Shown: positions 3,961 through 61,206 of the stretch, one piece after another
Layout: the number at the start of each line of letters is the position of its first letter
Numbering within the stretch: the stretch's first letter is position 1
NCBI GenBank assembly: GCA_947625765.1
Contig: CANQPP010000008.1
Location: 2,222-66,221 of the forward strand
DNA: 64,000 bases
Direction: 5' to 3'
From: an uncultured Clostridia bacterium
Lineage (GTDB): Bacteria > Bacillota > Clostridia > Christensenellales > UBA1750
Position numbers and translations under genes: made by a program
Notes under the pieces: model-generated
The model's input: the letters and a program-made list of their open reading frames with translations, nothing else
What the model was told of the DNA's origin: nothing
The model's database searches: none

Positions 3961-4071
3961 CTTCTGTTTCTCCTTTCGCCGCCCGTCCGGCCGTGTGTGG
4001 AAAGGATGCGGGACGGGTCCATCTATCTAAACGATACCATGCGGGCCCGTTTCTTGCAAGCAGCTTTTTCC

Positions 4072-4101
4072 TTGACGGATGCGCCCCCGCCGGCCTACAA
4101 T
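4072..4101 (+). promoter_or_regulatory. candidate promoter for the alpha-galactosidase-like gene
   Basis: TTGACG (4072-4077), 18 nt spacer, TACAAT (4096-4101). It lies in the divergent intergenic region. Confidence 0.4.
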
Positions 4102-4162
4102 AGGCAAAAGAGGGGGATAACAAGTTAAAGCCCCCACAGAAGAAGGAGCGTGCAAACCTCAA

Positions 4163-5911: not shown

Positions 5912-5924
5912 CAAAAAAGACATA

Positions 5925-5958
5925 CCGCCCCGCTGCATATCCTTTTGCAGCGGGGCGG
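5925..5958. terminator. bidirectional intrinsic terminator
   Basis: Perfect 12-bp stem CCGCCCCGCTGC / GCAGCGGGGCGG, flanked by an A-run on the left and a T-run on the right. It lies between convergent genes. Confidence 0.7.
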
Positions 5959-5977
5959 CGTCCGTTTTGGCGTCTGT

Positions 5978-6454: not shown

Positions 6455-6660
6455 GAAAATACGCCTCCCGTTTTGTTTTCTCTCCTGAAAGCCAGCATAC
6501 CACAGAGGCGGCCATCCTTCAAGGGCGGTTTTGTTTGGCCGCCTTTTCATTGACAACTTTACGCAAAAAGGCTAAACTAAAGGCAAATTGCCGAGGGCCT
6601 GGCTCAAGCCGTCGGCAAAAAGCAAATAGAAAATACAAACAAAAGGTGGAGAAATACTCT

Positions 6661-9306: not shown

Positions 9307-9343
9307 GGGGCTTCAAACCTTAAAAGGAGAAGGGAAGCAGGAC

Positions 9344-10693
9344 ATGCAGGCAGCGGACAAGCCCATCGCGGCCATCGCCACGGCGCCGGGGCTTTCGGGC
9401 ATCGCCATCGTGCGTGTGTCCGGGCCGGGGGCGCTGGAGGCGGCGCGGCGGGTGTTCCACAAGAAGGCAAAGGGGCCCTATGAGAGCCACCGGCTCTATT
9501 ACGGCCGGGCCATGGAGGAGAACACGCCCATCGACGAAGCCATGGGCGTATATTTTCGCGCCCCGCGCAGCTACACCGGCGAGGACGTGTTCGAGGTGCA
9601 GTGCCACGGGGGCGGCGTGGCGGCGCGCTCGGTGCTGGCCGCCCTGCTCAAGGCGGGCTGCCGCCTGGCCGAGCCGGGGGAGTTCACCAAGCGGGCCTTC
9701 CTGAACGGACGGCTGCGCCTGGACGAGGCCGAGGCCGTGATGGACCTGATCGCGGCGTCCAGCGAGGCCGCGGCCCGCAGCGCCTATGCCCGGATGAACG
9801 GGGCGCTGACCCGGCAGCTGGGGCCGCTGGAGGAGGAGCTGCTGGACATGGCGGCCTCCCTGGAGGCGCTGCTGGAATACCCGGACGAGGACGTGGAGGA
9901 AAAAACCGTCCGCGAAACGCTGGGCGGGCTGGAGCCCGCGATCCAAAAGCTGGAAAATGCCATACGCGGCGCGCGGGCGGCGGAGAAGCTGCGGCAGGGC
10001 GTGCGGGTGGTGCTGTTCGGGGAGCCGAACGCGGGCAAGTCCTCGCTGCTGAACGCGCTGCTGTTGCGGGAGCGGGCCATCGTGACCGAGCTGCCCGGCA
10101 CCACGCGGGACGTTTTGCGGGAGGAGATGAGCATCCGCGGCCTGCCGGTGGTGCTCTCGGACACCGCGGGGCTGCGGGAAGCGCGGGACCGGGCCGAGGA
10201 AATGGGCGTTAAGCTGAGCCGGACGGAGCTTATGCAGGCGGACGTCGCCCTGCTGGTGCTGGATGCCTCGACGGAAAGCCTGCCGGGATTGCCGCCCTTT
10301 ACCTGCCCGCTGCTCGTGTGCATGAACAAGAGCGACCTAAAACAGGCGCTGGATGAGAAAGAAGTGCTCAAGGCCTACAAGCCGGCGGCGCTCCTGCACA
10401 CGAGCGCCGTAAGCGGCGAGGGGCTGGAGAAACTCAAGGATGCCCTGTACCGGCAGGCGGTGCGCCTGACGGACGGGGAGGCCGCGGGCCTGGCCGGGGA
10501 ACGGCAAGAGGAGCTGGCCAAGGAGGCGCTCGCCGCCCTGACGGACGCGCGGGAGGCCCTCGGCCAAGGCACGCTGGACATGGCGGCCATCGCCATCAGG
10601 CAGGGCTATGCCTCCCTTTGCGCCATCTTCGGCAAAGATGCGGACGAGAGCGTGATCGACCGCATCTTCCAGAAGTTCTGTTTGGGAAAGTAG
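9344..10693 (+). CDS. mnmE: tRNA modification GTPase MnmE
   Basis: IAAIATAPG...IVRVSG, G-domain GEPNAGKSSLLNAL and the C-terminal FCLGK motif. ATG 9344 follows AAAGGAGAAGGG. Confidence 0.95.
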   Translation: MQAADKPIAAIATAPGLSGIAIVRVSGPGALEAARRVFHKKAKGPYESHRLYYGRAMEENTPIDEAMGVYFRAPRSYTGEDVFEVQCHGGGVAARSVLAALLKAGCRLAEPGEFTKRAFLNGRLRLDEAEAVMDLIAASSEAAARSAYARMNGALTRQLGPLEEELLDMAASLEALLEYPDEDVEEKTVRETLGGLEPAIQKLENAIRGARAAEKLRQGVRVVLFGEPNAGKSSLLNALLLRERAIVTELPGTTRDVLREEMSIRGLPVVLSDTAGLREARDRAEEMGVKLSRTELMQADVALLVLDASTESLPGLPPFTCPLLVCMNKSDLKQALDEKEVLKAYKPAALLHTSAVSGEGLEKLKDALYRQAVRLTDGEAAGLAGERQEELAKEALAALTDAREALGQGTLDMAAIAIRQGYASLCAIFGKDADESVIDRIFQKFCLGK

Positions 10694-10737
10694 CCGACCC
10701 GCTTATAAGGCAGCGTGACCACTGCGGGGGGGAAACC

Positions 10738-10777
10738 GGGAGGGAAGGAGGGAGAGGCTCCCCCCTCCTTCCCTCCC
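10738..10777. repeat. perfect 15-bp inverted repeat with polypurine/polypyrimidine arms
   Basis: GGGAGGGAAGGAGGG (10738-10752), a 10-nt loop, then CCCTCCTTCCCTCCC (10763-10777). It lies 45 nt after the mnmE stop. Confidence 0.9.
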
Positions 10778-10915
10778 GGACCCTCCTTTTCTCCTCCCGC
10801 GCTCCCAAGGGGCGTTTCTTCTAATATAGAGGGGCTGGCTTTTCCCTTCTTCCGCCTGCGGAGATCGCAGGCGGCATCTGACCTTCAAGGAAATGATCAG
10901 CGGAGGTTTAACAGA

Positions 10916-11362
10916 ATGAGAGCGCCATTTGAGATCTTGGCAATCCCTTTCAGAAAAATATCTTCGCAAGAGATGGAGTTTTGTGTTTTTCATCGCGCGG
11001 ACTTCGACCAGTGGCAGTTTGTTTCCGGCGGCGGCGAGGATGAGGAAACGCCGACAGAGGCGGCGAAAAGAGAAATTTGGGAAGAAACGGGGATAAAGAC
11101 AAACAGCATTATAAAGCTGACATCCATGACATATATCCCCGCAAATATTTTCCTGGAGCGATACCGAAAATATTGGGCAAAAAACACCTATGTTATTCCC
11201 GAATACCACTTCGCGTTTGAATGTGTTTCAGACATAAAGTTATCCGATGAACACATCGGCTGCGAGTGGCTGCGTTATGAAGACGCTCTGGCGCGCCTTA
11301 CTTGGGATTCCAACAAAACAGCTTTGTATGAATTGCGCTGCCGATTGCTTGAAAGAGCTTAA
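10916..11362 (+). CDS. NUDIX hydrolase
   Basis: NUDIX box GGGEDEETPTEAAKREIWEETG. ATG 10916 follows GGAGG. The gene is visibly AT-richer than its flanks. Confidence 0.8.
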   Translation: MRAPFEILAIPFRKISSQEMEFCVFHRADFDQWQFVSGGGEDEETPTEAAKREIWEETGIKTNSIIKLTSMTYIPANIFLERYRKYWAKNTYVIPEYHFAFECVSDIKLSDEHIGCEWLRYEDALARLTWDSNKTALYELRCRLLERA

Positions 11363-11442
11363 AACCGGTAAAGAAAGATGGTTTGCTTGTATTAAAGTCA
11401 ACAAAAGACCCATCATTTTTATGGAGGATACAGGAAACGGAT

Positions 11443-13320
11443 ATGGACCAGAGCTTTGCGGCAAGGGAATACGACGCGGTGGTGATCGGCGCGGGGCACG
11501 CGGGCTGCGAGGCAGCCCTGGCGCTGGCCCGGATGGGGCTGGAGACGCTGCTGCTGACGCTGAACCTGGACGCCGTGGCCATGATGCCCTGCAACCCGTC
11601 CATCGGCGGCACGGCCAAGGGGCACCTGGTGCGGGAGGTGGACGCGCTGGGCGGCGAGATGGGCCGCGCCATCGACGATACCTACCTGCAGAGCCGGATG
11701 CTGAACACGGGCAAGGGGCCGGCGGTGCACTCCCTGCGCGCCCAGGCGGACAAGAAGGCGTATCAAAAGCGGATGCTGCGCGCGCTGCTGGAGCAGGAGA
11801 GACTGACACTGCGCCAGGGAGAGGCCAGCCGGATCCTTTTGGACGGACAGGGCCGCGTGCGGGCGGTGCGCACCCGCACGGGCGGGGAATACGCCTGCCG
11901 GGCTGTGGTGGCGACCACGGGCGTGTACCTAAAGTCGCGGGTCATCATCGGGGAAACGATGCTGGAGCAGGGGCCCTCGGGCCTGTTCCCGGCCACGGAG
12001 CTGAGCCGGGACCTGACGGAGCTGGGCTTTAGCCTGCGCCGCTTTAAGACCGGCACCCCGGCGCGGGTGGACATACGCACCGTGGACCTTTCCAAGTTGG
12101 AGCGACAGGACGGCGACGTGCCGCCCACGCCCTTCTCCTTCCTGAGCGGGGACATCTCCCGGCCGCAGCTGCCCTGCTATCTGGGCTACACCAACGAGCG
12201 CACCCACGAGATCATACGCCGCAACCTGCACCGGGCGCCCATGTATTCCGGCGCGCTGCACTCCACGGGCACGCGCTACTGCCCTTCCATCGAGGACAAG
12301 GTGGTGCGCTTCCCGGACAGGGACCGGCACCCACTGTTCCTGGAGCCGGAGGGGGAGAACAGCCCCGAATGGTACGTGCAGGGCATGTCCACCTCCATGC
12401 CGGAGGAGGTGCAGTACGAGATCTACTGCTCCATGGCGGGGTTCGAGCGCGTGGAGTTCCTGCGTCTCGCCTACGCCATCGAGTACGACTGCATCGACCC
12501 GCTGGAGCTGGACGGGTGCTTAAGCTCCCGGCGCATCCCGGGGCTGTACTTTGCCGGGCAGATCAACGGCACCTCCGGCTACGAGGAGGCCGCCGCGCAG
12601 GGCATCTACGCGGGGATCAACGCGGCGCTGTTCCTAAAAGGGCAGGAGCCGCTGCGCCTGACGCGGGCGGACGCCTACATAGGCGTTTTGGTGGATGACC
12701 TTACGAGCAAGGGCACCAACGAGCCCTACCGCATGATGACCGCGCGGGCGGAGTACCGCCTGCTGCTGCGCCAGGACAACGCCGACCTCCGGCTGACGGA
12801 GCGCGCCTACCGGGCGGGATTGGCCTCACGGGAGCGGTACGAGAAGATGTTGAAGAAGCGGCAGGAGACGGAGGCGCTCATGGAGGCGCTCAAAAACACG
12901 CGCCTGCCCGCGGAGGCGGCCGCAAGGCTCACCGGGCAGGAGGAAAAGGGGCCCTCCAGCGCGTACATGCTGCTAAAGCGCGACAATATACACGTTTCCG
13001 ACCTGCGGCGGGAGGCGGAGCTGCCCATCTCCTCCCCGGAGGCGGAGGAGCAGGCGGAGATCGAGGCGCGGTACGAGGGGTACCTAACGCGCCAGAACGC
13101 GCAGGTGGAGCAGTTCCGCCGCTCGGAGGCGCTGCGGCTGCCGCCGGACCTTGACTTTATGGCCATGACGAACCTTAGGATCGAGGCGCGGCAGAAGCTG
13201 ACCGCCCTCCGGCCGGAAACGCTAGGCGCGGCCTCGCGCATCTCCGGCGTGTCGCCTGGGGACATCGCCGTGCTGCTGGTGGAATTGGAGCGGCGGCGCA
13301 GAAGGGAGGCCGGGGAATGA
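11443..13320 (+). CDS. mnmG: tRNA uridine 5-carboxymethylaminomethyl modification enzyme MnmG
   Basis: YDAVVIGAGHAGCEAALA FAD motif and a full-length GidA-like sequence. ATG 11443 follows GGAGGA. Confidence 0.95.
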   Translation: MDQSFAAREYDAVVIGAGHAGCEAALALARMGLETLLLTLNLDAVAMMPCNPSIGGTAKGHLVREVDALGGEMGRAIDDTYLQSRMLNTGKGPAVHSLRAQADKKAYQKRMLRALLEQERLTLRQGEASRILLDGQGRVRAVRTRTGGEYACRAVVATTGVYLKSRVIIGETMLEQGPSGLFPATELSRDLTELGFSLRRFKTGTPARVDIRTVDLSKLERQDGDVPPTPFSFLSGDISRPQLPCYLGYTNERTHEIIRRNLHRAPMYSGALHSTGTRYCPSIEDKVVRFPDRDRHPLFLEPEGENSPEWYVQGMSTSMPEEVQYEIYCSMAGFERVEFLRLAYAIEYDCIDPLELDGCLSSRRIPGLYFAGQINGTSGYEEAAAQGIYAGINAALFLKGQEPLRLTRADAYIGVLVDDLTSKGTNEPYRMMTARAEYRLLLRQDNADLRLTERAYRAGLASRERYEKMLKKRQETEALMEALKNTRLPAEAAARLTGQEEKGPSSAYMLLKRDNIHVSDLRREAELPISSPEAEEQAEIEARYEGYLTRQNAQVEQFRRSEALRLPPDLDFMAMTNLRIEARQKLTALRPETLGAASRISGVSPGDIAVLLVELERRRRREAGE

Positions 13321-38945: not shown

Positions 38946-41441
38946 TTACTCGCCGTCCGCAGGCTCCGGCGCCTCGGGATTCTCCACGCCTTCCTGCACG
39001 TTTATCTCCTCCTCGTCGGAGGGCTCCTCGTGCTCGGCCACGGTCAGCGCCACCACCTTCGCGTTTTCGCCCAGCCGCATGAGCCTCACGCCCTGGGTGG
39101 AGCGTCCCTGCTCCCGCACGCTCTCGATGGGCGTGCGGATCACGGTGCCGTCGTCGGTGATGAGCAGCATATCCATGTCCGCGCGCACCATGCGCAGCGC
39201 CACCAAATCGCCGGTCTTCGCGCTCAGCTGCATGGCCTTGATGCCCTTTCCGGCCCTGGACTGCAGGCGGTACTCCTCCAAGGGGCTCCGCTTGCCGTAG
39301 CCGTTCTCGGTCACGGCCAGCAGCTCGTATTCCTCCTCCTCGGGAGAGGCCAGGCACAGGGAGACCACGCAGTCCCCTTCGTCCAGCTCGATGGACTTAA
39401 CGCCCATGGCGCCGCGGCCCGTGGCGCGGATGCCGTCCTCCCGGAAGCGGATGGACTGCCCCTTGCGGGTGGCGACCAGCACGTCGTTTTCCCCGGTGGA
39501 CAGGGCCACGCCGATCAGCTCGTCCTCCTCGCGCAGGGAGATGGCGATCAGCCCGCTTGCGCGCACGTTGTCGAACTCCGAGAACTCCGTGCGCTTGATG
39601 AGGCCATTCCTGGTGGCCAGGATCAGGTGGGAGCTGCCGCCCTCGGGCACGGGGATCACGGCCTGCACCTTCTCGCCGCCGTCCAGCTGTAGCAGGTTCA
39701 CGATGGCCGTTCCCTTTGCGGTGCGCCCGGCCTCGGGGATCTCGTAGCACATCTTGACGAAGACCCTGCCGCGGGAGGTAAAGAACATGAGCTTGGAATG
39801 GGTGGAGGTGACGAACAGGTCCTCCACGAAGTCCTCCTCGCGGGTGGTGAGGCCCGCGATGCCCTTGCCGCCCCTGCGCTGGGCCCGGTAGGTGTCGGCG
39901 GATACGCGCTTGATGTAGCCAAAGTGGGTCAGCGTCACCGCCATGTCCTCTTCCTGGATCATGTCGGCCAACACGATCTCGTCCTCCACCGGCTCTATGC
40001 CCGTGCGGCGGGGATCGGCGTACTTGTTCTTAAGGGCCGTGATCTCGGTCTTGATGATGCCGCGCACCATTTCGTCGGACTCAAGCACCGCACGGAAATA
40101 CGCGATCTGCTCCATCAGCTCGTCGTATTCGGCCTGCAGCCTCTCGCGTTCCAAGCCCGTCAGCCTTTGCAGGCGCATATCCAAAATGGCCTGCGCCTGC
40201 TTTTCGGAAAAGGCAAACTCCTCCATCAGGGCGTCCTTGGCCTCCTGGCCGGTGCGGGAGGAGCGGATCAGCTGTATGATGCGGTCGATGTGGTCCAGGG
40301 CCTTGAGCAGGCCTTCCAGTATGTGGGCGCGGGCCTCGGCCTTGCTCAGGTCGTACTTGGTGCGCCGGACGATCACGTCCTTCTGGTGCTCGATGTAGTA
40401 ATAGAGCATCTGCTGCAGGTTCAGCACGCGAGGCTCGCCGTTGACCAGGGCCAGCATGATGACGCCGAAGGTATCCTGCAGCTGGGTGTGCTTAAAGAGC
40501 GTGTTGAGCACGATGTTGGCGTTCACGTCGCGCTTAAGTTCGATCACGATGCGCATGCCCTTGCGGTCGGACTCGTCGCGCAGGTCGGAGATGCCCTCCA
40601 CGCGCTTTTCGTGCACAAGCTCCGCGATCTTCTCCACCAGTCGCGCCTTGTTGACCTGGTAGGGGATCTCGGTCACGACGATGCGGGAGCGGTTAGGGCC
40701 CATCTGCTCGATCTCGGTGCGGGCGCGGGTCACGATCCTTCCCTTGCCGGTCATGTAGGCCTGGCGGATGCCGGAGAGGCCCATGATGACGCCGCCGGTG
40801 GGGAAGTCCGGGCCGGGGATATACTCCATCAGCTCGGGCACGGTGATGTCGGGCTTGTCCAGCATGGCGACCACGCCGTCGATCACCTCGCCCAGGTTGT
40901 GGGGCGGTATGTTGGTGGCCATGCCCACGGCGATGCCGCCGGAGCCGTTGACCAGCAGGTTCGGGAAGCGGGAGGGCAGCACCTCCGGCTGCATCAGGGA
41001 CTCGTCGAAGTTGGGATAGAAATCGACGGTCTCCTTGTCGATGTCCGCGACCATCTCCATGGCCATCTTGGAAAGCCGCGCCTCGGTGTATCGCATGGCG
41101 GCGGCGCCGTCGCCGTCCACGGAGCCGAAGTTTCCCTGTCCCTCCACCAGCAGGCAGCGGGTGGAAAAGTCCTGCGCTAAACGCACCATGGCGTCGTAGA
41201 CCGCGGTGTCCCCGTGGGGATGGTACTTACCCAGGACCTCGCCCACGATGCGGGCGGACTTCTTAAACGGCTTATCGGGGGTCATGCCCAGCTCGTTCAT
41301 GGCGTACAGTATACGCCGATGCACGGGCTTTAGGCCGTCGCGCACGTCCGGCAGGGCGCGGTTGATGATCACGGCCATAGCGTAGGAGATAAAGGAGTGT
41401 TTGAGCTCCTCCTCCAGATCTATGGGTTTCAGCCTGTCCAT
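38946..41441 (-). CDS. gyrA: DNA gyrase subunit A
   Basis: Full-length GyrA ([30 protein letters not shown], active-site AAMRYTE). ATG 41441 lies 5 nt after GAAGGAGG. Confidence 0.95.
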
Positions 41442-41487
41442 GTTGGCCTCCTTCAACTCTCAAGCAAAAAGACTTCTTTGTTTGGTG

Positions 41488-43464
<1,977 letters not shown>

Positions 43465-46080: not shown

Positions 46081-49000
46081 TTATTCCGTGATCTCCAAAT
46101 AGGGCAGGTAGGGCAGCAGGTTTTCCTGCGCGCAGTCCAGATACATCGCGCTGACCCAGGCCGGGCGGCCCTTCCAGTCGATTTGCACCCAGCCGTCCTC
46201 CGGCGCGGAGGCGTACACCCATTCCCCGCGCTTGAGCGTCCCCAGCCGCCGATCCTCCGTCCCCGGCCCGCTGCGCACGTTCAGCGTCCGCGCGATCACG
46301 CACAGGCAGTCGGACAGGGGCGCGATGTACTCCATCGAGACATAGCCCGTCCGCCCATCGGGCAGGAGCACGAAGCCCCAGCGCTCGGCGCCGCTTCCCG
46401 TCTCCGTTTCGCTTTTTTCGATGAGCAGCAGCCTCTGCCCTTTCTTGAGGCTCCCGCTCTTTTCATACCCGGTCCCCGGGCCGGAACGCAGGTTGAGCTT
46501 CTCGCACAGCACCACGTGCTCCCGGATGGGCTCTTCCTCCTCCTCTTCCTCGCTCCATAGGAGGATGCCGGCGACGGGCTGCAGGGGGATCTCCTCAAAG
46601 ACCGCGCCGATGACCATATCGTGGGCGGGCATGTCGAAGCCGTAGCCCGTCTTGCCCTCGGACAGTGTAACATAGGTATTTTCCCGATCGGCCGGGTCGT
46701 AGGCGTAGACCTCCTTCACCCGCCAGCCCATGTCGGCCTGGGGCGTTACGCGCACCCACAGCCCTTCCTCGGCCTGCGTGAGGCTCGGGAGCAGGCTCCC
46801 GTGCCGGATATCTTCCTCCAGCGTGACCGCATACGTTTTCGCGGGCAGGGGGCCGTTGGTCACGCAGATTACGCCGCCGGTCGAGCTTGTCCCGCCGGAC
46901 TTCGCCGCATAGGGTTCTATCGGGAGGGTGAAGCCCTCCGTGTCGGCCAGCTCCCAGCGGAAGCGGTTCACCGCCCCCGCCTCGGCGGAGAAGCTCCCCT
47001 CCAGCGTCCAGAGAACGGGCAGCTCCACGGCCTCCTCCCGGTCGGAGAGGAAAGCCTGCACGGAGCTGCGCTGCTTATACAGCTCCCGCAGCGTATCCTC
47101 CGCGCTCTTTAGTGGCGCGGTCAGCACCAGGTCCTCGATGGCCTTAACGCTTTTTAGCACCGGCTTCTTCGGCGGCGCGGGGGCGACGGGCTCCGACGCC
47201 GGGCTGACCGCTTCGCCTCTCCAAATTCCAAGTCCGACCACCCGCACCCGCAGACAACTGCCCACGTCTCCTTCATTCGGGATGTAGCCAAGGCCCGTCG
47301 CGCCCGCGATCTGCTGGAAGCGCAGGCCGTTCTTCGGCCGCTTCTCCCAGACCGCGAGAAAGCTGTCCTTCTCCGTCGCGCCCTCGACGACGGCGGTCAG
47401 AGGAAGGCCGACCTGGGGCGCGCCTTCCAGATACACGGTGACGGCCAGCGCGCGCCCCTTTACCGGGCCGATGGGCTCGCTGTACATCTCCAGCTCCGGC
47501 GCCCAGGCGCGGAAGAACAGGCCCTCGTCGCGCTCCTGCAGGGTGTATTCTCCATTTCCGCTTCCGGGCAGCGTTTCGTAGACGCCGTCGGCCAGCGCGG
47601 CCCGCTGCCAGTAAACCTCAATTTCGTCCTGTTTCGCGGCCTCTCCGATAAGCACGGCGCGAGCGCGCAGCGTTTCGCCCAGCAGCGCCTCGCCCTCGAT
47701 CTCGAACCGCACGCTTTCGTTTCCCGGCAGCAGCGGGCCGATGACCGGGCTCAACAGGTTGTTGCCGTAGTTCTCCCTGCCCACGACCACCAGGCGCAGG
47801 TATTTGCCGATCAGCGCCGCGCCGGGCGTGAAGCTCTCGGCGTAGGCGTTCGGGATGGGCTCAAAATCACCGTCGGGGCGGTCGCAGACCTCCCACTGGA
47901 AGCCCAGCCAGTCCTTGTGAAGGCCTAAAGGCAGGCGGACGCGCAGCGTTTCCCCCGTTCGGTAGCTCGCCGCGTCCTTAGCCTGCACCCGCTCGATCTG
48001 GACGTTTCCCTCCAGGGGCAGCAGTCGCACCGGGCCCACGGGCTCGCTCACGACCTCGCCTTCCCGGCCCTCGGCCGTGACGCGCAGGCGCAGAAACTTG
48101 CCCGTCCACAGGGCCAGGACCGTCAGCTCCTCCCCTTCCGCGCCTGGGATGTCGCGGAACTCGCCAAAGGGCTTGCCGCCCAGGGATTCCGCGATCTGCC
48201 AGTGAAAGACCGCGTTTTCGGGCAGATCTGCGCCCTTGGCTTGCTGCTTGTTCGTGGCGAGGGGTTCGCCCTGTATTTGTACGCTGCCGCTCATGGGCGG
48301 CGTGGGAGGAAGTTCCACGGGCCCGACCGCCGCACTGCATACGGCCTCGTCCTCGCGGCCCTCCTGCCAGACGCGGACGCGCAGGCGGTAGTCGAGGTCT
48401 TCGACATCGATCTCATACGACGGCCCCTCCGCGCCCGAGATCGTCTTGTATTCGCCGCCCGCGCCGCGCTCCCAGGCGTAGAACAGGGCGGGCTTTTCCG
48501 TTCCCTCCATCCCCTCGCGGACCGTCAGCTGCGCGGTGAGCGTGCTGCCCACGAGCGCTTCCCCCTCCAGCGTCACGCCGCTGAGGTAGAGGGGCGGCTT
48601 TTCGCTCACGGTCAGACCGCCGTCCTTGAGCGAAAAAGCCCTGCCGCCGGGCAGGGAGAAGGCGGCCGCGTCGGCGGCGTTCAATGTATGGCCCGCCGTG
48701 CCCGCAAACACCGCGCTGTCTTTGGGGGTTTTCTCCGATATGGCCAGCTCCACGCGGCCCGTGAGCGCCGAGGCCAGCGGGATGGGCAGGTTCCAGCCGT
48801 CCAGCTGCAGGCCCTCCGCCTGCTCGTTCGCCGCGTTTCCCTCGATGGTCAAATTCCCGCCCAGCGTAAGGGACGGGGACGGATAGGAGGGCAAAGTCTC
48901 CAAACAAAGAACGGCGGACTCATCCGCCGCGTTGTCTTGGATCGTGCCGCCCAGCAGCTCCACGCTTGCCGCCGCGCCGTAGGGCTCCACATAAACGGCG

Positions 49001-49638
49001 CCGCCCCGCGATGCCCGGTTGCCCGAGAGCTCGCCGTCCTCCAAACGCAGGTAAGCGCCGCCCAACAATGCCGCCGCGCCGCCCTTTTCCGCGCCGCAGC
49101 CGCGGATCGTGCCGCCCTCGAGTATGAGAGAGGCCTCATTCACGCAGACGCCACCGCCCAGGAGATCGGAGGCGTCCGAGCTCAAGATGTTCCCCTCCAG
49201 CACAGCGTTTTCGCCCAATACGCAGGTGGAGCCCGTCTGCAGCGCGATCAGCGGCGTGGAGGCGTTTTCCGTGCCCACCAGGCGCACGTTGCGCAGCGTC
49301 AGGCGGGAGCCCGGGTACACCGTGAAACCAGTGCCGTATTTTCCATCCGTAAAAATAGAAACGCCGTCGCCCGCGCCTTCGATCAGAATATCCTGGTCTT
49401 CATAAATATAGATCGGGAGGTCCAACGTGAAGTCATTCGTTACCGTGATGGTCGCGGAACCATAAATCGAAGCGAGCTCCTTCTCCAGCTCAGCGCTGCT
49501 TGAAGCGGTCTTGGCATCCGCCGCCGCCCGCTCGGGGACAATTAAACAGCCCATAAAAAGGACAAGGGCCAGCAGCAGGGCCGGAACGCGGCGGAAAGGT
49601 CTGGAAAAACGGGAAAAGCGCGGCAGCATGGGCCTCAT
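46081..49638 (-). CDS. large secreted cell-surface protein (beta-helix region, five Ig-like repeats, InlB-B-like repeat, two SH3b domains)
   Basis: Signal peptide is VPALLLALVLFMGCLIV. GG(x)xxV/N repeats in aa 150-300 suggest a parallel beta-helix. C-terminal LNLRSGPGTGY... and LNVRSGPGTEDRRLG...GWVQIDWKGRPAWV are SH3b-like. Start is ambiguous (49677 GTG, 49638 ATG or 49629 ATG). Confidence 0.8.
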   Translation of the reverse strand: MRPMLPRFSRFSRPFRRVPALLLALVLFMGCLIVPERAAADAKTASSSAELEKELASIYGSATITVTNDFTLDLPIYIYEDQDILIEGAGDGVSIFTDGKYGTGFTVYPGSRLTLRNVRLVGTENASTPLIALQTGSTCVLGENAVLEGNILSSDASDLLGGGVCVNEASLILEGGTIRGCGAEKGGAAALLGGAYLRLEDGELSGNRASRGGAVYVEPYGAAASVELLGGTIQDNAADESAVLCLETLPSYPSPSLTLGGNLTIEGNAANEQAEGLQLDGWNLPIPLASALTGRVELAISEKTPKDSAVFAGTAGHTLNAADAAAFSLPGGRAFSLKDGGLTVSEKPPLYLSGVTLEGEALVGSTLTAQLTVREGMEGTEKPALFYAWERGAGGEYKTISGAEGPSYEIDVEDLDYRLRVRVWQEGREDEAVCSAAVGPVELPPTPPMSGSVQIQGEPLATNKQQAKGADLPENAVFHWQIAESLGGKPFGEFRDIPGAEGEELTVLALWTGKFLRLRVTAEGREGEVVSEPVGPVRLLPLEGNVQIERVQAKDAASYRTGETLRVRLPLGLHKDWLGFQWEVCDRPDGDFEPIPNAYAESFTPGAALIGKYLRLVVVGRENYGNNLLSPVIGPLLPGNESVRFEIEGEALLGETLRARAVLIGEAAKQDEIEVYWQRAALADGVYETLPGSGNGEYTLQERDEGLFFRAWAPELEMYSEPIGPVKGRALAVTVYLEGAPQVGLPLTAVVEGATEKDSFLAVWEKRPKNGLRFQQIAGATGLGYIPNEGDVGSCLRVRVVGLGIWRGEAVSPASEPVAPAPPKKPVLKSVKAIEDLVLTAPLKSAEDTLRELYKQRSSVQAFLSDREEAVELPVLWTLEGSFSAEAGAVNRFRWELADTEGFTLPIEPYAAKSGGTSSTGGVICVTNGPLPAKTYAVTLEEDIRHGSLLPSLTQAEEGLWVRVTPQADMGWRVKEVYAYDPADRENTYVTLSEGKTGYGFDMPAHDMVIGAVFEEIPLQPVAGILLWSEEEEEEEPIREHVVLCEKLNLRSGPGTGYEKSGSLKKGQRLLLIEKSETETGSGAERWGFVLLPDGRTGYVSMEYIAPLSDCLCVIARTLNVRSGPGTEDRRLGTLKRGEWVYASAPEDGWVQIDWKGRPAWVSAMYLDCAQENLLPYLPYLEITE
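47182..48585 (-). repeat. five tandem ~90-aa coding repeats inside the surface-protein gene
   Basis: Each unit follows the pattern G(E/S)xL...(Y/F)xW...I(P/S)GAxGxxY...D.G..LRVRV...PVGPV. Approximate unit boundaries are aa 365-455, 463-552, 556-650, 656-741 and 745-832. Confidence 0.6.
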
Positions 49639-49767
49639 CCTTTCGGTGGGAAATTGGTATTTTTTTCCAGTATACACCGAAAGACGAAGAAGTACATAAT
49701 AAATTTAAAGAAAATATAAAATCTGGTCATATAAATTAGAGGAAAATGACAAATTTAAAAAGATAGC

Positions 49768-55484: not shown

Positions 55485-57278
55485 ATGCCAAGACTGCGCG
55501 TCATCGACGACGAGGTCATCGAAAGACCGTTTAACGCCAAGGAGCTTCTGCGCCTGTTCAGCTACCTAAAGCCCTACAAGTGGTCCGTGGTCATCGCCTG
55601 CACGCTGATGGTGATCGCGGCCGTGGCCAGCCTGGCCATGCCGTACCTTATGTCCATCGCCGTGGACGACATCACCGTGGGGGATTTGAGCCGCTTCCCC
55701 GTTTTGATCATCTCCATGGTGGTCGTGGCCCTGGTCTCCGGCCTGTGCATCCGCTACCGCGCCAGGATCCTGGACACCGCCGGCCGCAAGGCCATCGCGG
55801 ACTTAAGGCAGCACCTGTTCAACCACGTGCAGGACCTGAGCTTCTCCTTCTTCGACAGCCGCAGCGCCGGCAAGATCATGGTGCGCATCATCAACGACGT
55901 CAACTCCCTGATGGACCTGCTCACCAACGGCATCGTGAACGTCTTGATCGACTGCGTGACGCTGATCCTGCTGGTGGTGCTCATGTTCACCGTGGACTGG
56001 AAGCTCACGCTCATCTCCATGTCCACGCTGCCCATCATGCTGCTCATCCTCTTTGGCCTAAAGCGCAAGATGCGCAAGAACTGGCAGACCGTGCGCGCCA
56101 AGATCTCCAACATGAACGGCTATCTGCACGAGAGCCTCTCCGGCATGCGCGTCACCCAGGCCTTCACCCGCGAAAAGGTGAACTCCGAGATCTTCACCGA
56201 CACCAACATGGACATCCGCGAGTCCTGGGTCAAGGCCATCAAGTTGAACGGCCTGTTCTGGCCCTGCCTGGACACCATCTCCGCCATCGGCACGGTGCTG
56301 GTCTACATATTCGGCGTGGCCATGCTCCAGAGCCGCATAGGGCCGCAGGGTATCACCGTGGGCACGCTCATGCTGATCCTCTGGTACTTGGGCCGCTTCT
56401 GGGAGCCCCTTAACAACCTCTCCAACTTCTACAACAACCTGCTGGTGGCCATGGCCTCCACAGAGCGCATCTTCGAGATACTGGATACCCCCGTGGAGAT
56501 CGCCTCCAAGGAGGGCGCAAAGGATCTGCCCCCCATCGAGGGCCACGTGGAGTTCGACCACGTCACCTTCAGCTACGATAAGGACAAGGTGGTCCTAAAG
56601 GACGTCAGCTTCAACGTCACGCCCGGCCAGACCATCGCCCTGGTAGGCCCCACCGGCGCGGGCAAGTCCACCGTGGTCAACCTGATCTCCCGCTTCTACG
56701 ACGTGACCGGCGGCAGCGTCCGCATCGACGGCCACGACGTGCGCGACGTGGACCTGCACTCCCTGCGCGACCAGATGTCGGTCATGATGCAGGACAGCTT
56801 CATCTTCTCCGGCACCATCATGGACAACATCCGCTACGGCCGCCTGGACGCCACCGACGAGGAGGTCATGGAGGCCGCCAAGGCCGTCAACGTGCACGAC
56901 ACCATCATGGAGATGGAAAAGGGCTACTACACCGAGGTCAACGAGCGCGGCTCCCGCCTGTCCGTGGGCCAGAGGCAGCTCATCTCCTTCGCGCGCGCCC
57001 TGCTCAACGACCCGCGCATCCTGATCCTGGACGAGGCCACCTCTTCCATCGACACCCACACCGAGATCCTCATCCAGCAGGCGCTGGAAGTGCTGCTGCG
57101 CGGCCGCACCTCCTTCGTCATCGCCCACCGCCTTTCCACCATCCGCAAGGCGGACTGCATCATGGTGGTGCAGGACGGCAAGATCCTGGAGCGCGGCACC
57201 CATGACGAGCTGATCGCCGCCAAGGGCGAATACTTCAAGCTCTGCGACGCCCAGTACCGCTTCCTCCGCGAGGCTTAA
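55485..57278 (+). CDS. ABC exporter, fused permease/ATPase (heterodimer partner 2)
   Basis: GPTGAGKST, LSVGQRQLISFARA and LILDEATSSID. ATG lies 1 nt after the upstream stop. Confidence 0.85.
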   Translation: MPRLRVIDDEVIERPFNAKELLRLFSYLKPYKWSVVIACTLMVIAAVASLAMPYLMSIAVDDITVGDLSRFPVLIISMVVVALVSGLCIRYRARILDTAGRKAIADLRQHLFNHVQDLSFSFFDSRSAGKIMVRIINDVNSLMDLLTNGIVNVLIDCVTLILLVVLMFTVDWKLTLISMSTLPIMLLILFGLKRKMRKNWQTVRAKISNMNGYLHESLSGMRVTQAFTREKVNSEIFTDTNMDIRESWVKAIKLNGLFWPCLDTISAIGTVLVYIFGVAMLQSRIGPQGITVGTLMLILWYLGRFWEPLNNLSNFYNNLLVAMASTERIFEILDTPVEIASKEGAKDLPPIEGHVEFDHVTFSYDKDKVVLKDVSFNVTPGQTIALVGPTGAGKSTVVNLISRFYDVTGGSVRIDGHDVRDVDLHSLRDQMSVMMQDSFIFSGTIMDNIRYGRLDATDEEVMEAAKAVNVHDTIMEMEKGYYTEVNERGSRLSVGQRQLISFARALLNDPRILILDEATSSIDTHTEILIQQALEVLLRGRTSFVIAHRLSTIRKADCIMVVQDGKILERGTHDELIAAKGEYFKLCDAQYRFLREA

Positions 57279-57291
57279 AAACCCCGACAGA

Positions 57292-57322
57292 AACGGACCC
57301 CCGACATAACGCCGGGGGTCCG
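57292..57322. terminator. bidirectional intrinsic terminator
   Basis: ACGGACCCCCG-acataacgc-CGGGGGTCCGT followed by TTTCG. It lies between convergent genes. Confidence 0.75.
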
Positions 57323-57356
57323 TTTTCGTGCGCTTCTTTTTATTAGGAGCGGCGGC

Positions 57357-57989
57357 CTAATGGTGGCCGTGGTGCCCGCTCTCGTGCTCGCTCCCGTGGC
57401 CGCTCTCGTGGCTGTCCTCGTGGCTGTCCTCTTCCTCGTGGTGGGCCGCCGTCTGGTGGTGGTGGCTTTCCTCGGTGCAGTCCAGCGGGCAGCTGTGGTG
57501 GTGCTCATAGTCCGTGCAGTCCGCCGGGCAGTCGTGGTGGTGCGCCGGGTCGGTGCAGGTCGGATCGCTGCAGCCCATGCCGCTTATGAACGTGACGGTC
57601 TCATGCTCGGCCTCGTGGTCCTCCTCGTGGTGGGCTGTTGTCGTCTGGTGGTGGTGGCTTTCCTCCGTGCAGTCCAGCGGGCAGTCGTGGTGGTGCTCGT
57701 AGTTGGAGCAGTCCGCCGGGCAGTCGTGGTGGTGCGTGGGGTCGGTGCAGGTCGGGTCGCTGCAGCCCATGCCGCTCACGAACGAAACGGGCTTGTTGAC
57801 CATGGCGGTCCCCGCGCTCTCGATCGTCTTGAGCGCTTCCGCGGTCTCCGCCGGCTCCGCGGCCTCCGCGCTCTGACTTAAGGTCTCCGGCTCCTCCGGG
57901 GCCGGGCTCGCGGGGCCCGCGTGCGCCGCGCTGCAGCCGGCAAGCGCGACCGTACAAACGAGCAGCAACAGCATCGCATATTTCTTCAT
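57357..57989 (-). CDS. Cys/His-rich tandem-repeat lipoprotein (putative metal-binding)
   Basis: Lipobox LLLVCTVALAGC-S. There are two ~60-aa repeats of sequence GMGCSDPTCTDP(T/A)HHHDCPADC..YEHHH(D/S)CPLDCTEESHHHQ, followed by a His/Glu/Ser-rich tail ending in GHHGHH. ATG 57989 follows GGAGATG. Confidence 0.75.
   Translation of the reverse strand: MKKYAMLLLLVCTVALAGCSAAHAGPASPAPEEPETLSQSAEAAEPAETAEALKTIESAGTAMVNKPVSFVSGMGCSDPTCTDPTHHHDCPADCSNYEHHHDCPLDCTEESHHHQTTTAHHEEDHEAEHETVTFISGMGCSDPTCTDPAHHHDCPADCTDYEHHHSCPLDCTEESHHHQTAAHHEEEDSHEDSHESGHGSEHESGHHGHH
57441..57793 (-). repeat. tandem ~189-bp coding repeat (two copies) in the lipoprotein gene
   Basis: 57441-57600 and 57630-57793 align with few substitutions, for example GTCCAGCGGGCAG(C/T)(T/C)GTGGTGGTGCTC and GCAGTCCGCCGGGCAGTCGTGGTGGTGCG. 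Confidence 0.8.
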
Positions 57990-58083
57990 CTTTACAACAT
58001 CTCCGTCTCTTTCCGTTGAGCCTTTTTTCCCTGCGAATGCTTCTTCCCCAAAAAGGGCCCGCAGAGGGACCCCCTTCCTTTCT

Positions 58084-58112
58084 GTGATAGCACTTGCGCC
58101 TTCCCCTGTCAA
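58084..58112 (-). promoter_or_regulatory. candidate promoter of the lipoprotein gene
   Basis: Minus strand reads TTGACA, 17 nt spacer, TATCAC. The ~95-nt leader contains GGGTCCC-tctgc-GGGCCC followed by TTTTT. Confidence 0.4.
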
Positions 58113-58174
58113 TGCTTCCGCCTTGTCTTCTTTTCACCATTTTTTCGTTTTTTGATTTTGGGGCATGTCTAAGC

Positions 58175-58217
58175 ATAAAAGAAGCGGACGAGAAGGGTCA
58201 TTCCCTCTCTCGTCCGC
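58175..58217 (-). terminator. intrinsic terminator after the desulfhydrase-like gene
   Basis: Minus strand reads GCGGACGAGAGAGGGA-atga-CCCTTCTCGTCCGC followed by TTCTTTTAT. Confidence 0.7.
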
Positions 58218-58232
58218 GTATCTCTCACATAT

Positions 58233-59315
58233 TTAGATGGGCCCCAGGATCTCCCGCTCGGCGAACAGGGCCGTGGTGCCGCCCGTGTGCAGGAACACCA
58301 CCGTGGCGCCTTTGGGGACCTCGCCCCGGGCGATGTGGTCCAGCATCCCGGCGAAGGCCTTGCCCGTGTAGACCGGGTCCAGCAGCAGCCCCTCCGTCCG
58401 CGCCAGGCGGCGGATGGCCTCGGTCGCGGCGGGGTTGGGCTTTTCGTACCCGGGGGCGAAGTAGCGCGCGTCGGTGTGGATGTCCTCCGGCTCCACCCGC
58501 TCCGGGCGGCCGAGCCAGGCAAGCGCCTCGCAGCTTAAAGTCGCGCACTTCCTGTGGTAGGCGTCCCTGTCCTTTTCACTCACGTTGATAGAGACGATGT
58601 CCGTTTCCCCGCCGGGCAGGCCCGCGGCCTTCAGCAAGGCCCTTCCCGCGACCAGGCCCGCCAGCGTGCCGCCGGTGCCCGCGGCGTGGAACAGGAAGTC
58701 CGCCTGTTTATCTAAGGCCGCCAGCTGCCCGCACAGCTCCAGATACCCCTCCGCGAAGGCCGCCGAGCCCGCCGCGTCGGCCCCGCCCATGGGCACCTCG
58801 CAGCAGCGCATGCCGACCTCCTCCAGGTCCCGCATGTGCTCCCGGGCCATGGCGAAGGAGCGCTCCTCCGCGTCCTCCTCGCTCTCGCCGGGAAGCTGCT
58901 CCACGATGTGCACCTCCGCGCCCAGGATTCGGTCCAGCAGCAGGTTGGCCCGCAGGTCCGCCTCGTCGGGCTTGACCAGCGCCACCAGGTACAAAACGGG
59001 CTTTAAGCCCAGCCTGCGGCAGGCGGTGGCCGTCTGCATGGCGTGGTTGGACTGCGTGGCCCCGTAGGTGAACACCGCCGTGCAGCCCATTGCCTGCGCC
59101 CGCCCCAGGATGAACTGCAGCTTGCGCACCTTGTTGCCCCCAAAGAGGCTCATCCCGGAGAGGTCGTCGCGCTTGATGTAGAGCTCGACCCCTAATTCCG
59201 CCGACAGCCGCTCCAGCTTGTGCAGGGGCGTGGGGTAAAAGCCCAGCGCGGCCCGCTTCACGCCGCCGAAGACCTCCGCCCGTAGCTCGCGGATACGTTC
59301 CATCTCTTTCGCCAC
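58233..59315 (-). CDS. D-cysteine desulfhydrase / ACC deaminase family PLP enzyme
   Basis: GGNKVRKLQFILG and YGATQSNHAMQTA motifs of this fold-type II family. Confidence 0.8.
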   Translation of the reverse strand: MAKEMERIRELRAEVFGGVKRAALGFYPTPLHKLERLSAELGVELYIKRDDLSGMSLFGGNKVRKLQFILGRAQAMGCTAVFTYGATQSNHAMQTATACRRLGLKPVLYLVALVKPDEADLRANLLLDRILGAEVHIVEQLPGESEEDAEERSFAMAREHMRDLEEVGMRCCEVPMGGADAAGSAAFAEGYLELCGQLAALDKQADFLFHAAGTGGTLAGLVAGRALLKAAGLPGGETDIVSINVSEKDRDAYHRKCATLSCEALAWLGRPERVEPEDIHTDARYFAPGYEKPNPAATEAIRRLARTEGLLLDPVYTGKAFAGMLDHIARGEVPKGATVVFLHTGGTTALFAEREILGPI

Positions 59316-59372: not shown

Positions 59373-59984
59373 TCATAACTCTCTTCTCTTGTACAGCCAG
59401 ATGGACAGCTGCCAGGAGAGCGCGTACAGCGCCGCGCCGATGAGCGGGGCCCAGTACAGCCCGATGTGCGGGACGTTCGACAGGTTCCCGGCGACACCGC
59501 CCACCGCGCCCATCACGCCGCAGACCAGGGAGATGCAGACGATGTAGATCAGGCGGCCCCTCTGCGCGCCGAAGCGGAACAGGATGGGGAGGCTCAGCAT
59601 GGGCACGGACATGGACAGCGGCACGGCCAAGGACAGGAACGCGCCGATCTGCAAAGGCAGGCCGTTGATGGAATGCCCGATCAGCAGCGCCAGGACGCAC
59701 ACGCCCCAGTTGAGGACCATGTAAAAGATGCTCACCAGATACCTGGCGCTCACCACCTGCGCGCGGGTCACGGGCAGCGCGGCGGCAAAGCGAGGCCAGC
59801 CGTAGCTCTCGTCCAGGCTCTGCAGGCTCATGGGCTGCACGCCGATCATCACGCAGGTGAACAGCAGGAAGAACTGCGCCGCTTCCCCGAAAACACCGCA
59901 GACCAGGTAAACGATGTTCAGCAGGAACAGCGCCCGCATGTTTTTAAAGCACAAAAGAACGTCCTTGTAGATAAGGCCCTTCAC
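59373..59984 (-). CDS. ABC-2 type transporter permease
   Basis: 203 aa, six hydrophobic segments. GTG 59984 follows AAGGAGGGAGAG and overlaps the ATPase stop (GTGA). The track ORF to 60419 is an out-of-gene extension. Confidence 0.7.
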   Translation of the reverse strand: MKGLIYKDVLLCFKNMRALFLLNIVYLVCGVFGEAAQFFLLFTCVMIGVQPMSLQSLDESYGWPRFAAALPVTRAQVVSARYLVSIFYMVLNWGVCVLALLIGHSINGLPLQIGAFLSLAVPLSMSVPMLSLPILFRFGAQRGRLIYIVCISLVCGVMGAVGGVAGNLSNVPHIGLYWAPLIGAALYALSWQLSIWLYKRREL

Positions 59985-60826
59985 CTTTTCTCTCCCTCCT
60001 TTGTCAGCAGCAGGAACATTTCCTCCACGCCCACGCTGGACAGGGCTGCGCCTTCCGGCATCCTGTCCCGGCGCACCAGCGCCCGCTCCCCGTAGGGCGT
60101 GTGCTTGACGCCCTGCACGGCCCCCTTCGGCAGGGCGTCCAGCTCCTCCGCCGTGCCCAGGAACAGGGCCAGCTCCTCCTGCAGCCTGTCCTTTTCCTCC
60201 ACGAGCAGCAGGCGGCCCTTGTGCAGGAAGGCGACGTAGTCGCAGAGCCTCTCCAGGTCGCTGACGATGTGGGAGGAGATGAGCACCGAGCGCTCCTCGC
60301 TGCGGGTGTAATCCTCCAGCATCTCCATCACCTGGTCCCGGGCCAGCGGGTCCAGACCGCCGGTGGGTTCGTCCAGCAGCAGGAGCTTGGGGTCGTGGCT
60401 CAGGGCTGCGGCGATGCACATCTTCTGCCGCATGCCGCGGGAGTAGTCCTTGAAGGGCTTCTTCTCCGGCAGGTCGAAGGCCTTGATGAGGGAGAAGAAC
60501 TTCTCCTCGTCCCAGGCCTTGTGGATGCCCGCCAGCATGCGGTCCATCTCCAGGGCGTTAAAGCTCAGGGGCAGGCCGGTGGCGTCCGGCACCACGCCCA
60601 GGTCCTCGCGGATGCCGTCCAGCTCCTTTTCGTCCCGGCCCAGCACGCGGACGCTGCCGCCGTCTTTTTTGAGCATCTGCAGGATCAGGCGCAGGAGCGT
60701 GGTCTTGCCCGCCCCGTTTTCGCCGATCAGGCCCAAGACGCAGCCGCCGGGCAGCGTCAGGTCCAGCGGCCCCAAGGTAAAGTCCTTAAACTTCCGGGTC
60801 AGTCCCCGAATTTCCAGCGCGTTCAT
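59981..60826 (-). CDS. ABC transporter ATP-binding protein
   Basis: GENGAGKTT, LSRGMRQK-type signature (YSRGMRQKMCIAAAL) and LLLDEPTGGLD. Confidence 0.85.
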   Translation of the reverse strand: MNALEIRGLTRKFKDFTLGPLDLTLPGGCVLGLIGENGAGKTTLLRLILQMLKKDGGSVRVLGRDEKELDGIREDLGVVPDATGLPLSFNALEMDRMLAGIHKAWDEEKFFSLIKAFDLPEKKPFKDYSRGMRQKMCIAAALSHDPKLLLLDEPTGGLDPLARDQVMEMLEDYTRSEERSVLISSHIVSDLERLCDYVAFLHKGRLLLVEEKDRLQEELALFLGTAEELDALPKGAVQGVKHTPYGERALVRRDRMPEGAALSSVGVEEMFLLLTKEGEKR

Positions 60827-61206
60827 TTCTCGTCCTCCAGTTGAAACCTCACCATCTCGAGCAGCTCCGCCTCCGACAGGCCGCAGGCGGCCGCCAGGCG
60901 GGCGATCTCGGAGATGTGCGTTTCGATCTCCTTCAGGTTCTGTTCGCGGATCAGCTCCGTGTTCTTGGGCGCCACGTAGCAGCCCTTGGCGGGAACGGTG
61001 TAGAGGAAGCCCTCCTTTTCCAGTTCCTCGTAGGCCCGCTTGGTGGTGATGAAGCTGATGGAAAGGTCCTTGGCCAGCGCGCGGATGGAGGGGAGCGCTT
61101 CGTTCTCGCGCAACTCCCCCCGCAGGATCTGCTCCTTGATCTGGGTGTAGATCTGGTTGTAGATCGGCGCGCCGCTGCGGTTGTCGATCAGGATGTGCAT
61201 GGCCAT
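60823..61206 (-). CDS. GntR family (YtrA-type) transcriptional regulator
   Basis: 127 aa, PIYNQIYTQIKEQILRGELRENEALPSIRALAKDLSISFITTKRAYEELE. Overlaps the ATPase start by 4 nt. Confidence 0.85.
   Translation of the reverse strand: MAMHILIDNRSGAPIYNQIYTQIKEQILRGELRENEALPSIRALAKDLSISFITTKRAYEELEKEGFLYTVPAKGCYVAPKNTELIREQNLKEIETHISEIARLAAACGLSEAELLEMVRFQLEDEK

Follow-up and report, generated by a model that had tools for sequence, protein, structure and literature searches.

What kind of protein is encoded on the minus strand at positions 57357-57989 of a 64,000-nucleotide stretch of DNA (hereafter the window; GenBank assembly GCA_947625765.1, contig CANQPP010000008.1) from an uncultured Clostridia bacterium, and what might it do? 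An earlier note, made from the DNA letters, had described an unrecognised lipoprotein rich in Cys and His and suggested that it binds metal outside the cytoplasm. We found that this open reading frame (ORF), complete with 210 codons and a TAG stop, is certainly coding. Judged from its sequence, the product is probably a lipid-anchored extracytoplasmic metal-binding protein, and its module would best be treated as a new domain family among proteins of a known type, the exported or stored His/Cys-rich metal binders. The analysis also brought out two things that the earlier note did not contain: a 13-14-residue Cys2His2 unit within the repeats, and the presence of the same cassette on BlaR1-type M56 receptors paired with BlaI repressors. 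These M56/BlaI fusions open a sensing role beside buffering or delivery.

The predicted protein begins with MKKYAMLLLLVCTVALAG directly followed by Cys, that is, with a basic n-region, a hydrophobic core and the lipobox L-A-G-C (signal peptide aa 1-19, 57933-57989, minus strand, as for all parts of this gene). Bacterial lipoproteins are recognised by a basic n-region, an h-region and the pattern [LVI][ASTVI][GAS]-C within roughly the first 15-35 residues; here the N-terminus reads MKK-YAMLLLLVCTVA-LAG-C19, and Cys19 would be the lipidated first residue of the mature protein. The Pfam model LPAM_1 matched weakly (E 0.13, 13.2 bits against a cut-off of 20). A linker rich in Pro, Glu and Ala follows (aa 20-66, 57792-57932), which is poorly conserved and of variable length among homologues (alignment A3). 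Both the lipobox and the linker had been claimed before and were confirmed in the translation, which reads as an intact, exported, lipid-anchored Cys/His-rich repeat protein.

The remainder of the protein is built on a repeat with a 64-residue period (aa 67-130 and 131-194). The two copies have 47 of 64 residues in common, their 51-residue cores are 84% identical, and at the DNA level identity is 86% across 176 nt at a spacing of 192 nt; the repeats of about 60 residues described earlier are therefore real, although calling them near-identical was slightly generous. Module 1 (aa 67-114, 57648-57791) starts with PVSFVSGMGC and module 2 (aa 131-178, 57456-57599) with TVTFISGMGC, and each holds three C-x3/4-C-x4-H-x-H units. 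The modules are separated by a His/Glu-rich spacer, QTTTAHHEEDHEAEHE (57600-57647), and the second is followed by the His/Glu/Ser C-terminal tail that had been pointed out, SHEDSHESGHGSEHESGHHGHH (57360-57455), which ends in GHHGHH. The three Cys pairs reported for each repeat (C-x4-C, C-x3-C and C-x3-C) are present in both, as are the three HHH triplets; in the triplets, however, only the two outer His are conserved, the middle residue being H or Y among relatives, so that the conserved motif is HxH. Tandem Repeats Finder (TRF) independently recovered the inner sub-repeat as a 39-nt (13-codon, 13-residue) period within each repeat (57472-57558 and 57648-57734), and a 12-nt period in part of the tail (57372-57431). 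The repeats thus form a hierarchy. Among the 89,068 residues of the six-frame ORFs of the window, the pattern C-x3/4-C-x-[DEN]-x-x-H-x-H is matched six times, always within this ORF. In total, the mature protein has 12 Cys besides the lipid-anchor Cys, 33 His, 41 Asp/Glu, 2 Lys and no Arg, and it is extremely acidic.

The G+C fraction at third codon positions (GC3) of the ORF is 0.91 in a window of 63% G+C, and between the two cores nonsynonymous divergence (dN 0.077) is lower than synonymous divergence (dS 0.288). The window DNA turns up in rabbit gut metagenomes, and a strain variant from another rabbit-gut metagenome differs in the His/Glu spacer by indels with a net effect of +3 nt, which leaves the frame intact. 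Together with the invariance of the ligands across relatives, these observations contradict the alternative, raised with the original proposal, that the repeat is a decaying sequence.

A gapless alignment of 88 modules from relatives (A1), whose source bacteria range from 37 to 65% G+C, is invariant at M8, G9, C10, C15, H20, H22, C28, H33, H35, C37, C41 and H46, and at least 90% conserved at D17, C24 and H48. Both window modules agree with every invariant column. As the invariant columns are mostly Cys or His, nearly all of the conservation falls on soft or borderline metal ligands; beyond the ligands it is confined mainly to F4, M8-G9, T16, D17, P25 and L39. The true building block is a 13-14-residue unit, C-x3/4-C-x-[D/E]-x-x-H-x-H, present three times per module, so that a module of 48 residues carries six Cys and six His. 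Unit 1 has the form C-x4-C-T-D-x-x-H-x-H, unit 2 C-P-x-D-C-x-D-x-x-H-x-H and unit 3 C-x-L-D-C-x-E-x-x-H-x-H, and in all three the first His follows the second Cys at the same distance.

We propose an exported Cys6His6 'MGC' module family with the pattern hydrophobic-x-F-hydrophobic-x-x-M-G-C-x4-C-T-D-x-x-H-x-H-x-C-P-x-D-C-x-D-x-x-H-x-H-x-C-x-L-D-C-x-E-x-x-H-x-H, in which at least one copy is preceded by an export signal or membrane anchor and followed by a His-rich tail. The window protein falls within this definition, signal and tail included. The tail HH...HHG..HH is itself conserved across the family, with H202, H206 and H207 at 90% or above (alignment A3). Module number varies from 1 to 4 per protein, which fits a capacity function such as buffering or scavenging. 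The units, too, are gained and lost: P0040 has extra units, P0034 is one unit short, P0117 carries nine copies of the first unit type alone after a Toastrack DUF4097 domain, and remote members retain a two-unit core only. The units thus behave as independent elements. Within a single 90%-identity cluster (P0002), members are 269, 323, 328, 354 and 387 aa long, a spread that indicates recent gain and loss of whole modules among closely related strains.

How widespread is this family? A word-indexed search of 5.8 billion proteins returned 60 homologues at E ≤ 0.01 (E 5.8e-8 for the 60th), the best of them at 51-64% identity. Most have no source name, and those named descriptively are called 'hypothetical protein' (e.g. 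MBD5494715.1 and MDE6433509.1). A HMMER scan with a module profile found 77 proteins at E ≤ 1e-3 among 1.84 billion cluster representatives, and the family is therefore rare. In 185,579 species-representative genomes we found 33 loci, all of them in metagenome-assembled genomes (MAGs), most labelled Clostridia, Lachnospiraceae, Oscillospiraceae, Acetatifactor, Roseburia, Subdoligranulum or Erysipelotrichaceae. The isolate names suggest a rabbit or rodent gut origin for many of these loci, and the family was met only in uncultured gut bacteria, nearly all labelled Clostridia. Three loci bear Bacteroides or Prevotella labels although the gene is otherwise met in Clostridia only: L001/L022 (contig CAZRKN010000006.1, 'uncultured Bacteroides sp.'), L028 and L040. 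The neighbours of L001/L022 read as Firmicute-like (a LytTR two-component system and an FtsX-type ATP-binding cassette (ABC) system), and we suspect that these contigs are mis-binned or mislabelled.

Obvious fragments excepted, all members inspected start with a lipobox, a signal peptide or a membrane anchor, and the domain is therefore always extracytoplasmic; a regular expression found a lipobox-like motif in 71 of 128 family proteins. The arrangement was rightly called unrecognised. Searches of the window protein against Pfam and NCBIfam gave no relevant match, only sub-threshold noise and the weak lipoprotein signal, and Pfam assigned none of ten remote members to a family at meaningful significance. 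A sequence-profile search of the PDB with the module alignment gave no match at E ≤ 10, and Foldseek against the PDB returned a single meaningless match (E 5). The AlphaFold2 confidence (predicted local distance difference test) was 64.6 for the module, 52 for the protein as a whole and mostly about 55 or below in the linker. The models were too uncertain to be read as structures; such low values are expected for a small metal-dependent fold or for a new fold and are not positive evidence for either. Our literature search found no description of this family under its motifs, under His/Cys-rich lipoproteins or under M56 metal sensors.

Several known systems resemble the module in part. SmtA is a cytoplasmic protein with a Zn4Cys9His2 cluster, in which Cys and His surround Zn, and SmbP is exported to the periplasm, His-rich, helical and devoid of Cys; SmtA/BmtA and SmbP are small proteins whose conserved residues are essentially metal ligands only. 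The window protein has no Pfam match to SmbP. Membership of the bacterial metallothioneins (SmtA/BmtA) was rejected on the lack of a Pfam or NCBIfam match and the presence of an export signal. Classical Cys2His2 zinc fingers follow C-x2-4-C-x12-H-x3-5-H, with two Cys and two His as the ligand set, and Sco1/SenC proteins have a copper site of CxxxC plus His in a thioredoxin fold, membrane-anchored outside the cytoplasmic membrane. Both have ligand sets similar to that of the module but differ from it in spacing, fold and location, and neither gave a sequence or fold match. A metallochaperone of the HMA/CopZ type requires a ferredoxin-like HMA domain with an MxCxxC loop, whereas the window protein has no CxxC and no HMA match. 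On inspection, the spacings do not fit heme-binding CxxCH, ferredoxin-type Fe-S, thioredoxin CxxC or sulfatase C-x-P-x-R motifs. Nor is the protein a SCIFF/ranthipeptide precursor of a ribosomally synthesised and post-translationally modified peptide: it has no NCBIfam match of that kind, it has a signal peptide, and there is no conserved radical-SAM neighbour.

Another partly similar group are the Pht proteins of streptococci (PhtD and others), which are surface-exposed, have lipoprotein-type signals, bind Zn through repeated His motifs and are thought to pass it to an importer (PMC3842936). They share with the window protein export to the surface of a Gram-positive-type cell and repeated short His motifs. 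However, Pht proteins have HxxHxH without Cys in much larger repeats, and pht genes are linked to adcAII, whereas the unit here is C-x3/4-C-x4-HxH and no transporter is linked to it. The Pfam histidine-triad family did not match the protein even at E ≤ 10, and the HxH stands after C-x3/4-C; Pht membership was therefore rejected. Hpn and Hpn-like proteins of Helicobacter pylori are small and very His-rich, contain some Cys, bind several Ni and act as a metal store or buffer (PMC5312948). In contrast to the window protein, with its signal peptide, lipobox and ordered 13-14-residue unit seen across 88 modules, they are cytoplasmic, lack a signal peptide, consist of low-complexity His runs and have no sequence relationship to it, and we rejected membership of this type as well.

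A further setting for the cassette emerged among its relatives. In at least 10 of the 77 representative clusters, the module lies at the extreme C-terminus of Peptidase_M56 proteins, with the same His-rich tail behind it (P0063, P0066, P0080, P0086, P0087, P0089, P0095, P0104, P0120 and the fragment P0076). The nine long fusions match PF05569 with E from 1e-32 to 1e-52, three of the fusions also contain Peptidase_M23, and the long proteins among the 77 representatives are almost all such BlaR1-type membrane proteins. Fusions are encoded at the genome loci L017, L018, L020 and L032, and at all four a PF03965 Penicillinase_R (BlaI/MecI-type) gene lies directly upstream. The free lipoprotein P0010 aligns without gaps, and with 79% identity, to the C-terminal end of the L017 receptor along 146 aa that take in two modules, spacer and tail; module 1 of the window and the module of the M56-M23 fusion P0087 are 70% identical; and one MAG has both forms, the fusion L018 and the free lipoprotein L023. 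By their make-up the fused relatives are BlaR1/MecR1-type transducers, and the window protein, which has no M56 domain, is not.

BlaR1 senses through its extracellular C-terminal domain, and its M56 domain relays the signal, leading to loss of BlaI repression (PMC9834060, PMC3356374). The cassette occupies the position of that sensor and is therefore a candidate sensor domain. The likeness extends to the way in which the domain occurs, both as a free exported protein and at the C-terminus of an M56 receptor next to a BlaI-type gene. It ends there, as the BlaR1 sensor is a penicillin-binding fold of about 250 aa that is acylated by beta-lactams, whereas the 48-aa Cys6His6 module shows no similarity to it. 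The BlaR1 penicillin-sensor or class D beta-lactamase fold (SxxK) was rejected: neither the module nor the C-terminal parts of the fusions matched a Pfam transpeptidase or beta-lactamase family, and the PDB profile search gave no matches. Atypical BlaR/BlaI pairs whose signals are not known are on record (bioRxiv 10.64898/2026.08.03.742534). It is possible, and we put it forward tentatively, that the cassette is the ligand-binding domain of an unrecognised group of proteolytic signalling systems of the BlaR1/BlaI type, which would sense an extracellular transition metal, or an oxidant that acts on the metal-thiolate sites, and not a beta-lactam. The window lipoprotein would then be the matching surface buffer or decoy, comparable to a free class D beta-lactamase.

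Our preferred reading of the window protein is metal binding, with buffering or scavenging of metal at the cell surface as the most likely role. The protein would leave the cell unfolded via Sec, be lipidated at Cys19 and be loaded with metal outside; if the host is monoderm, as most Clostridia are, it would sit on the outer face of the cytoplasmic membrane. A flexible, acidic linker of 47 residues may hold the two modules off the membrane. Each knuckle of 13-14 residues could offer a Cys2His2 set and thus about one tetrahedral site, which would make roughly six tight sites in the protein, three in each module, with the His/Glu spacers and the HH...HHGHH tail as weaker, low-affinity capture arms. 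The apo-protein is probably largely unfolded and would fold around its metal, and the reducing gut habitat would keep the thiols reduced. Ligand chemistry makes Zn(II) the most likely ligand, with Ni(II), Co(II) and Cu(I) as alternatives. We infer metal binding, its stoichiometry and the identity of the metal, and likewise the place of the protein between buffering and delivery and between detoxification and acquisition.

A number of observations weigh against this proposal. No metal-homeostasis gene, metalloregulator site or riboswitch accompanies the gene or the homologues examined; the neighbourhoods are not conserved, they share no operator, and Rfam was empty. Next to the M56 fusions stand genes with a link to the cell wall, namely one for an M23 peptidase and one for a second M56 protein that has an IseA-like inhibitor domain; no metal-homeostasis gene adjoins the fusions. 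The choice of Zn comes from ligand chemistry and nothing else, every member of the family is known as a sequence only, and no RNA runs holding the window gene were listed. The module is unrelated to any described family, has neither a solved structure nor a confident predicted one, and comes from uncultured gut bacteria only. If it does bind metal, it would represent a compact, repeatable 13-aa Cys2His2 knuckle working on the outside of strict anaerobes. It would then point to Zn, Ni, Co or Cu handling at the surface of gut Clostridia, in a sulfide-rich, host-restricted setting, and would suggest a candidate signal for the atypical BlaR/BlaI systems whose signals are unknown (bioRxiv 10.64898/2026.08.03.742534).

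Could the cassette be primarily a ligand-sensing domain, which on the M56 receptors detects an extracellular cue and so brings about cleavage of the adjacent BlaI-type repressor, with the free lipoprotein modulating, competing for or presenting that cue? Free class D beta-lactamase and the BlaR1 sensor domain offer a parallel, and the C-terminal position of the module on M56 proteins, the repressor gene upstream at four of four fusion loci, the close match of P0010 to the L017 receptor and the two forms in one MAG (L018, L023) would all fit. So would the other carriers, which are of envelope-signalling types: P0117 with its Toastrack DUF4097 domain, and P0100, whose N-terminal membrane anchor looks anti-sigma-like on reading, although Pfam finds no family there. 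We consider this doubtful, however. The window contains neither an M56 nor a BlaI gene, and neither the free lipoprotein genes nor the blaI genes have a TACAnnTGTA box upstream. Most members are free lipoproteins with a variable number of modules, which suits binding capacity better than sensing, and a sensor role for an atypical M56 C-terminal domain would be an analogy with BlaR1 (PMC9834060). It is unlikely that metal, probably Zn, merely staples the knuckles in place of disulfides and that the real function is to bind the wall, a polymer from host or diet, or a partner protein. In favour of this, Cys2His2 sets classically have structural roles, and the module occurs as an appendage to a range of extracytoplasmic proteins, among them receptors with an M23 peptidase and proteins with unrelated N-terminal domains; yet little is conserved outside the ligands that could make a specific binding surface, copy number varies within a 90% cluster (269-387 aa), and the acidic, His-rich spacers and tail resemble a means of cation capture.

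In zinc-thiolate switches such as RsrA and Hsp33, oxidation releases the metal and forms disulfides. Units of this kind, as Zn-thiolates or free thiols, could provide a strict anaerobe with an extracytoplasmic redox buffer or oxidant sensor that works in the same way. This would agree with the presence, in a protein that an anaerobe exports, of 12 Cys at close spacing (C-x3/4-C), and the association with envelope-signalling proteins would suit a stress sensor. We regard the redox role as quite unlikely, since a thiol switch has no need of six equally conserved His per module and a His-only tail, and no thiol-disulfide oxidoreductase gene is linked in the window or in six homologue neighbourhoods. 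Finally, the ORF might be a decaying or spurious repeat, or might not be expressed, given that no RNA run is listed with it and that metagenome assemblies break inside the repeat. This is very improbable in view of the GC3, the dN/dS below 1, the in-frame indel, the ligands held invariant in 88 modules from bacteria of such different G+C content, the complete expression signals, and a homologue found in a metatranscriptome.

The expression signals lie in the intergenic region between the lipoprotein gene and the upstream gene for a pyridoxal phosphate (PLP) enzyme of the PALP family, which ends at 58233. By eye, a promoter-like site is present on the minus strand at 58084-58112, with TTGACA (58112-58107), a 17-nt spacer and TG-n-TATCAC (-10 at 58089-58084), in agreement with the earlier note; a simple sigma-70 consensus scan reported no site upstream of the gene because the -10 ends in C. 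A Shine-Dalgarno sequence, GGAG (58001-58004, minus strand), precedes the ATG by 11 nt. The hairpin and U-run that had been assigned to the leader belong elsewhere. The sole convincing hairpin with a U-run in the intergenic region (58175-58217, minus strand; stem 58217-58184 with 10 + 4 bp, U-run 58183-58175, UUCUUUUAU) lies upstream of the promoter-like site and is the terminator of the PLP-enzyme gene, by which the lipoprotein gene is set apart as a gene standing alone. In the small hairpin at 58076-58051, which lies about where the mRNA is predicted to start, the U's form part of the stem. The suggestion of a metal-sensing leader did not hold either: Rfam gave no match at the gathering threshold in the whole window, and only chance-level matches to unrelated families in 57200-58400, and the leader folds no better than shuffled sequences (z = +0.67 and -0.14). 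We therefore rejected a metal-sensing riboswitch (e.g. NiCo/czcD) there. Downstream, a strong G+C-rich hairpin with T-runs on both strands (57291-57325) forms a bidirectional terminator; the fold of 57270-57362 reaches -42.4 kcal/mol (z = -4.44), and none of 200 shuffles was equally stable. The convergent ABC exporter gene, with an ORF that ends at 57278, appears to share this terminator with the lipoprotein gene.

The homologues show no common gene context. Six of them on long contigs lie in six unrelated neighbourhoods, each gene with its own promoter-like site and terminator, and tblastx of the window flanks against all loci found no synteny beyond the gene itself. Upstream of 37 loci, neither TACAnnTGTA boxes (BlaI/CopY-type) nor a common palindrome were shared. 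Family members may be transcribed as single genes; weak evidence for this comes from a mouse-gut metatranscriptome, in which the L024 homologue is covered by its own 729-nt contig and the neighbouring genes are on separate contigs.

Some homologues have palindromes at or near their promoter-like sites, TCATATTAATATGA (L001 at about -60 and L023 at about -59 from the start codon), AAGAGAATGTTCTCTT (L006 at about -103 and L033 at about -40) and ATTATACAGTATATAAT (L009 at about -54). They are perfect or near-perfect, differ by lineage and fit no assignable operator consensus. At L002, the divergent neighbour of the homologue (5570-7699, minus strand) encodes a subunit of acetyl-CoA synthase/CO dehydrogenase, a nickel enzyme, a single and anecdotal case without a counterpart at the other loci. 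The fusion locus L018 has an unusual arrangement at 3608-7711, where one BlaI-type repressor gene is followed by two tandem M56 receptor genes, the first ending in the Cys/His cassette and the second in an IseA-type DL-endopeptidase-inhibitor domain.

In the window, the neighbours named earlier, a PLP enzyme upstream and a convergent ABC exporter gene pair downstream, were found in place, and a GntR/ABC/ABC-2 operon lies close by. This is a three-gene unit with overlapping ends (59373-61206, minus strand), directly upstream of the PLP-enzyme gene, which encodes a GntR-family regulator, an ABC ATPase and an ABC-2 permease and is a typical small exporter module; the ORF listed at 59373-60419 is over-extended, the ABC2_membrane_5 match falling in 59373-60014. 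Pfam also identified gyrB and gyrA, side by side, along with mnmE and mnmG (38946-43410, minus strand, and 9245-13320, plus strand). The GyrB protein of the window is 90% identical to metagenomic proteins and about 70-72% identical to proteins labelled Clostridia bacterium or Candidatus Avichristensenella, and the host is therefore placed among the uncultured Clostridia. As gyrA, gyrB, mnmE and mnmG are near the replication origin in many bacteria, the window may be origin-proximal. Lastly, an ORF of 1198 aa (46081-49677, minus strand) encodes two bacterial SH3_3 domains towards the C-terminus together with an Ig-like (AIR9) repeat, and its product is probably a large cell-surface or wall-associated protein.

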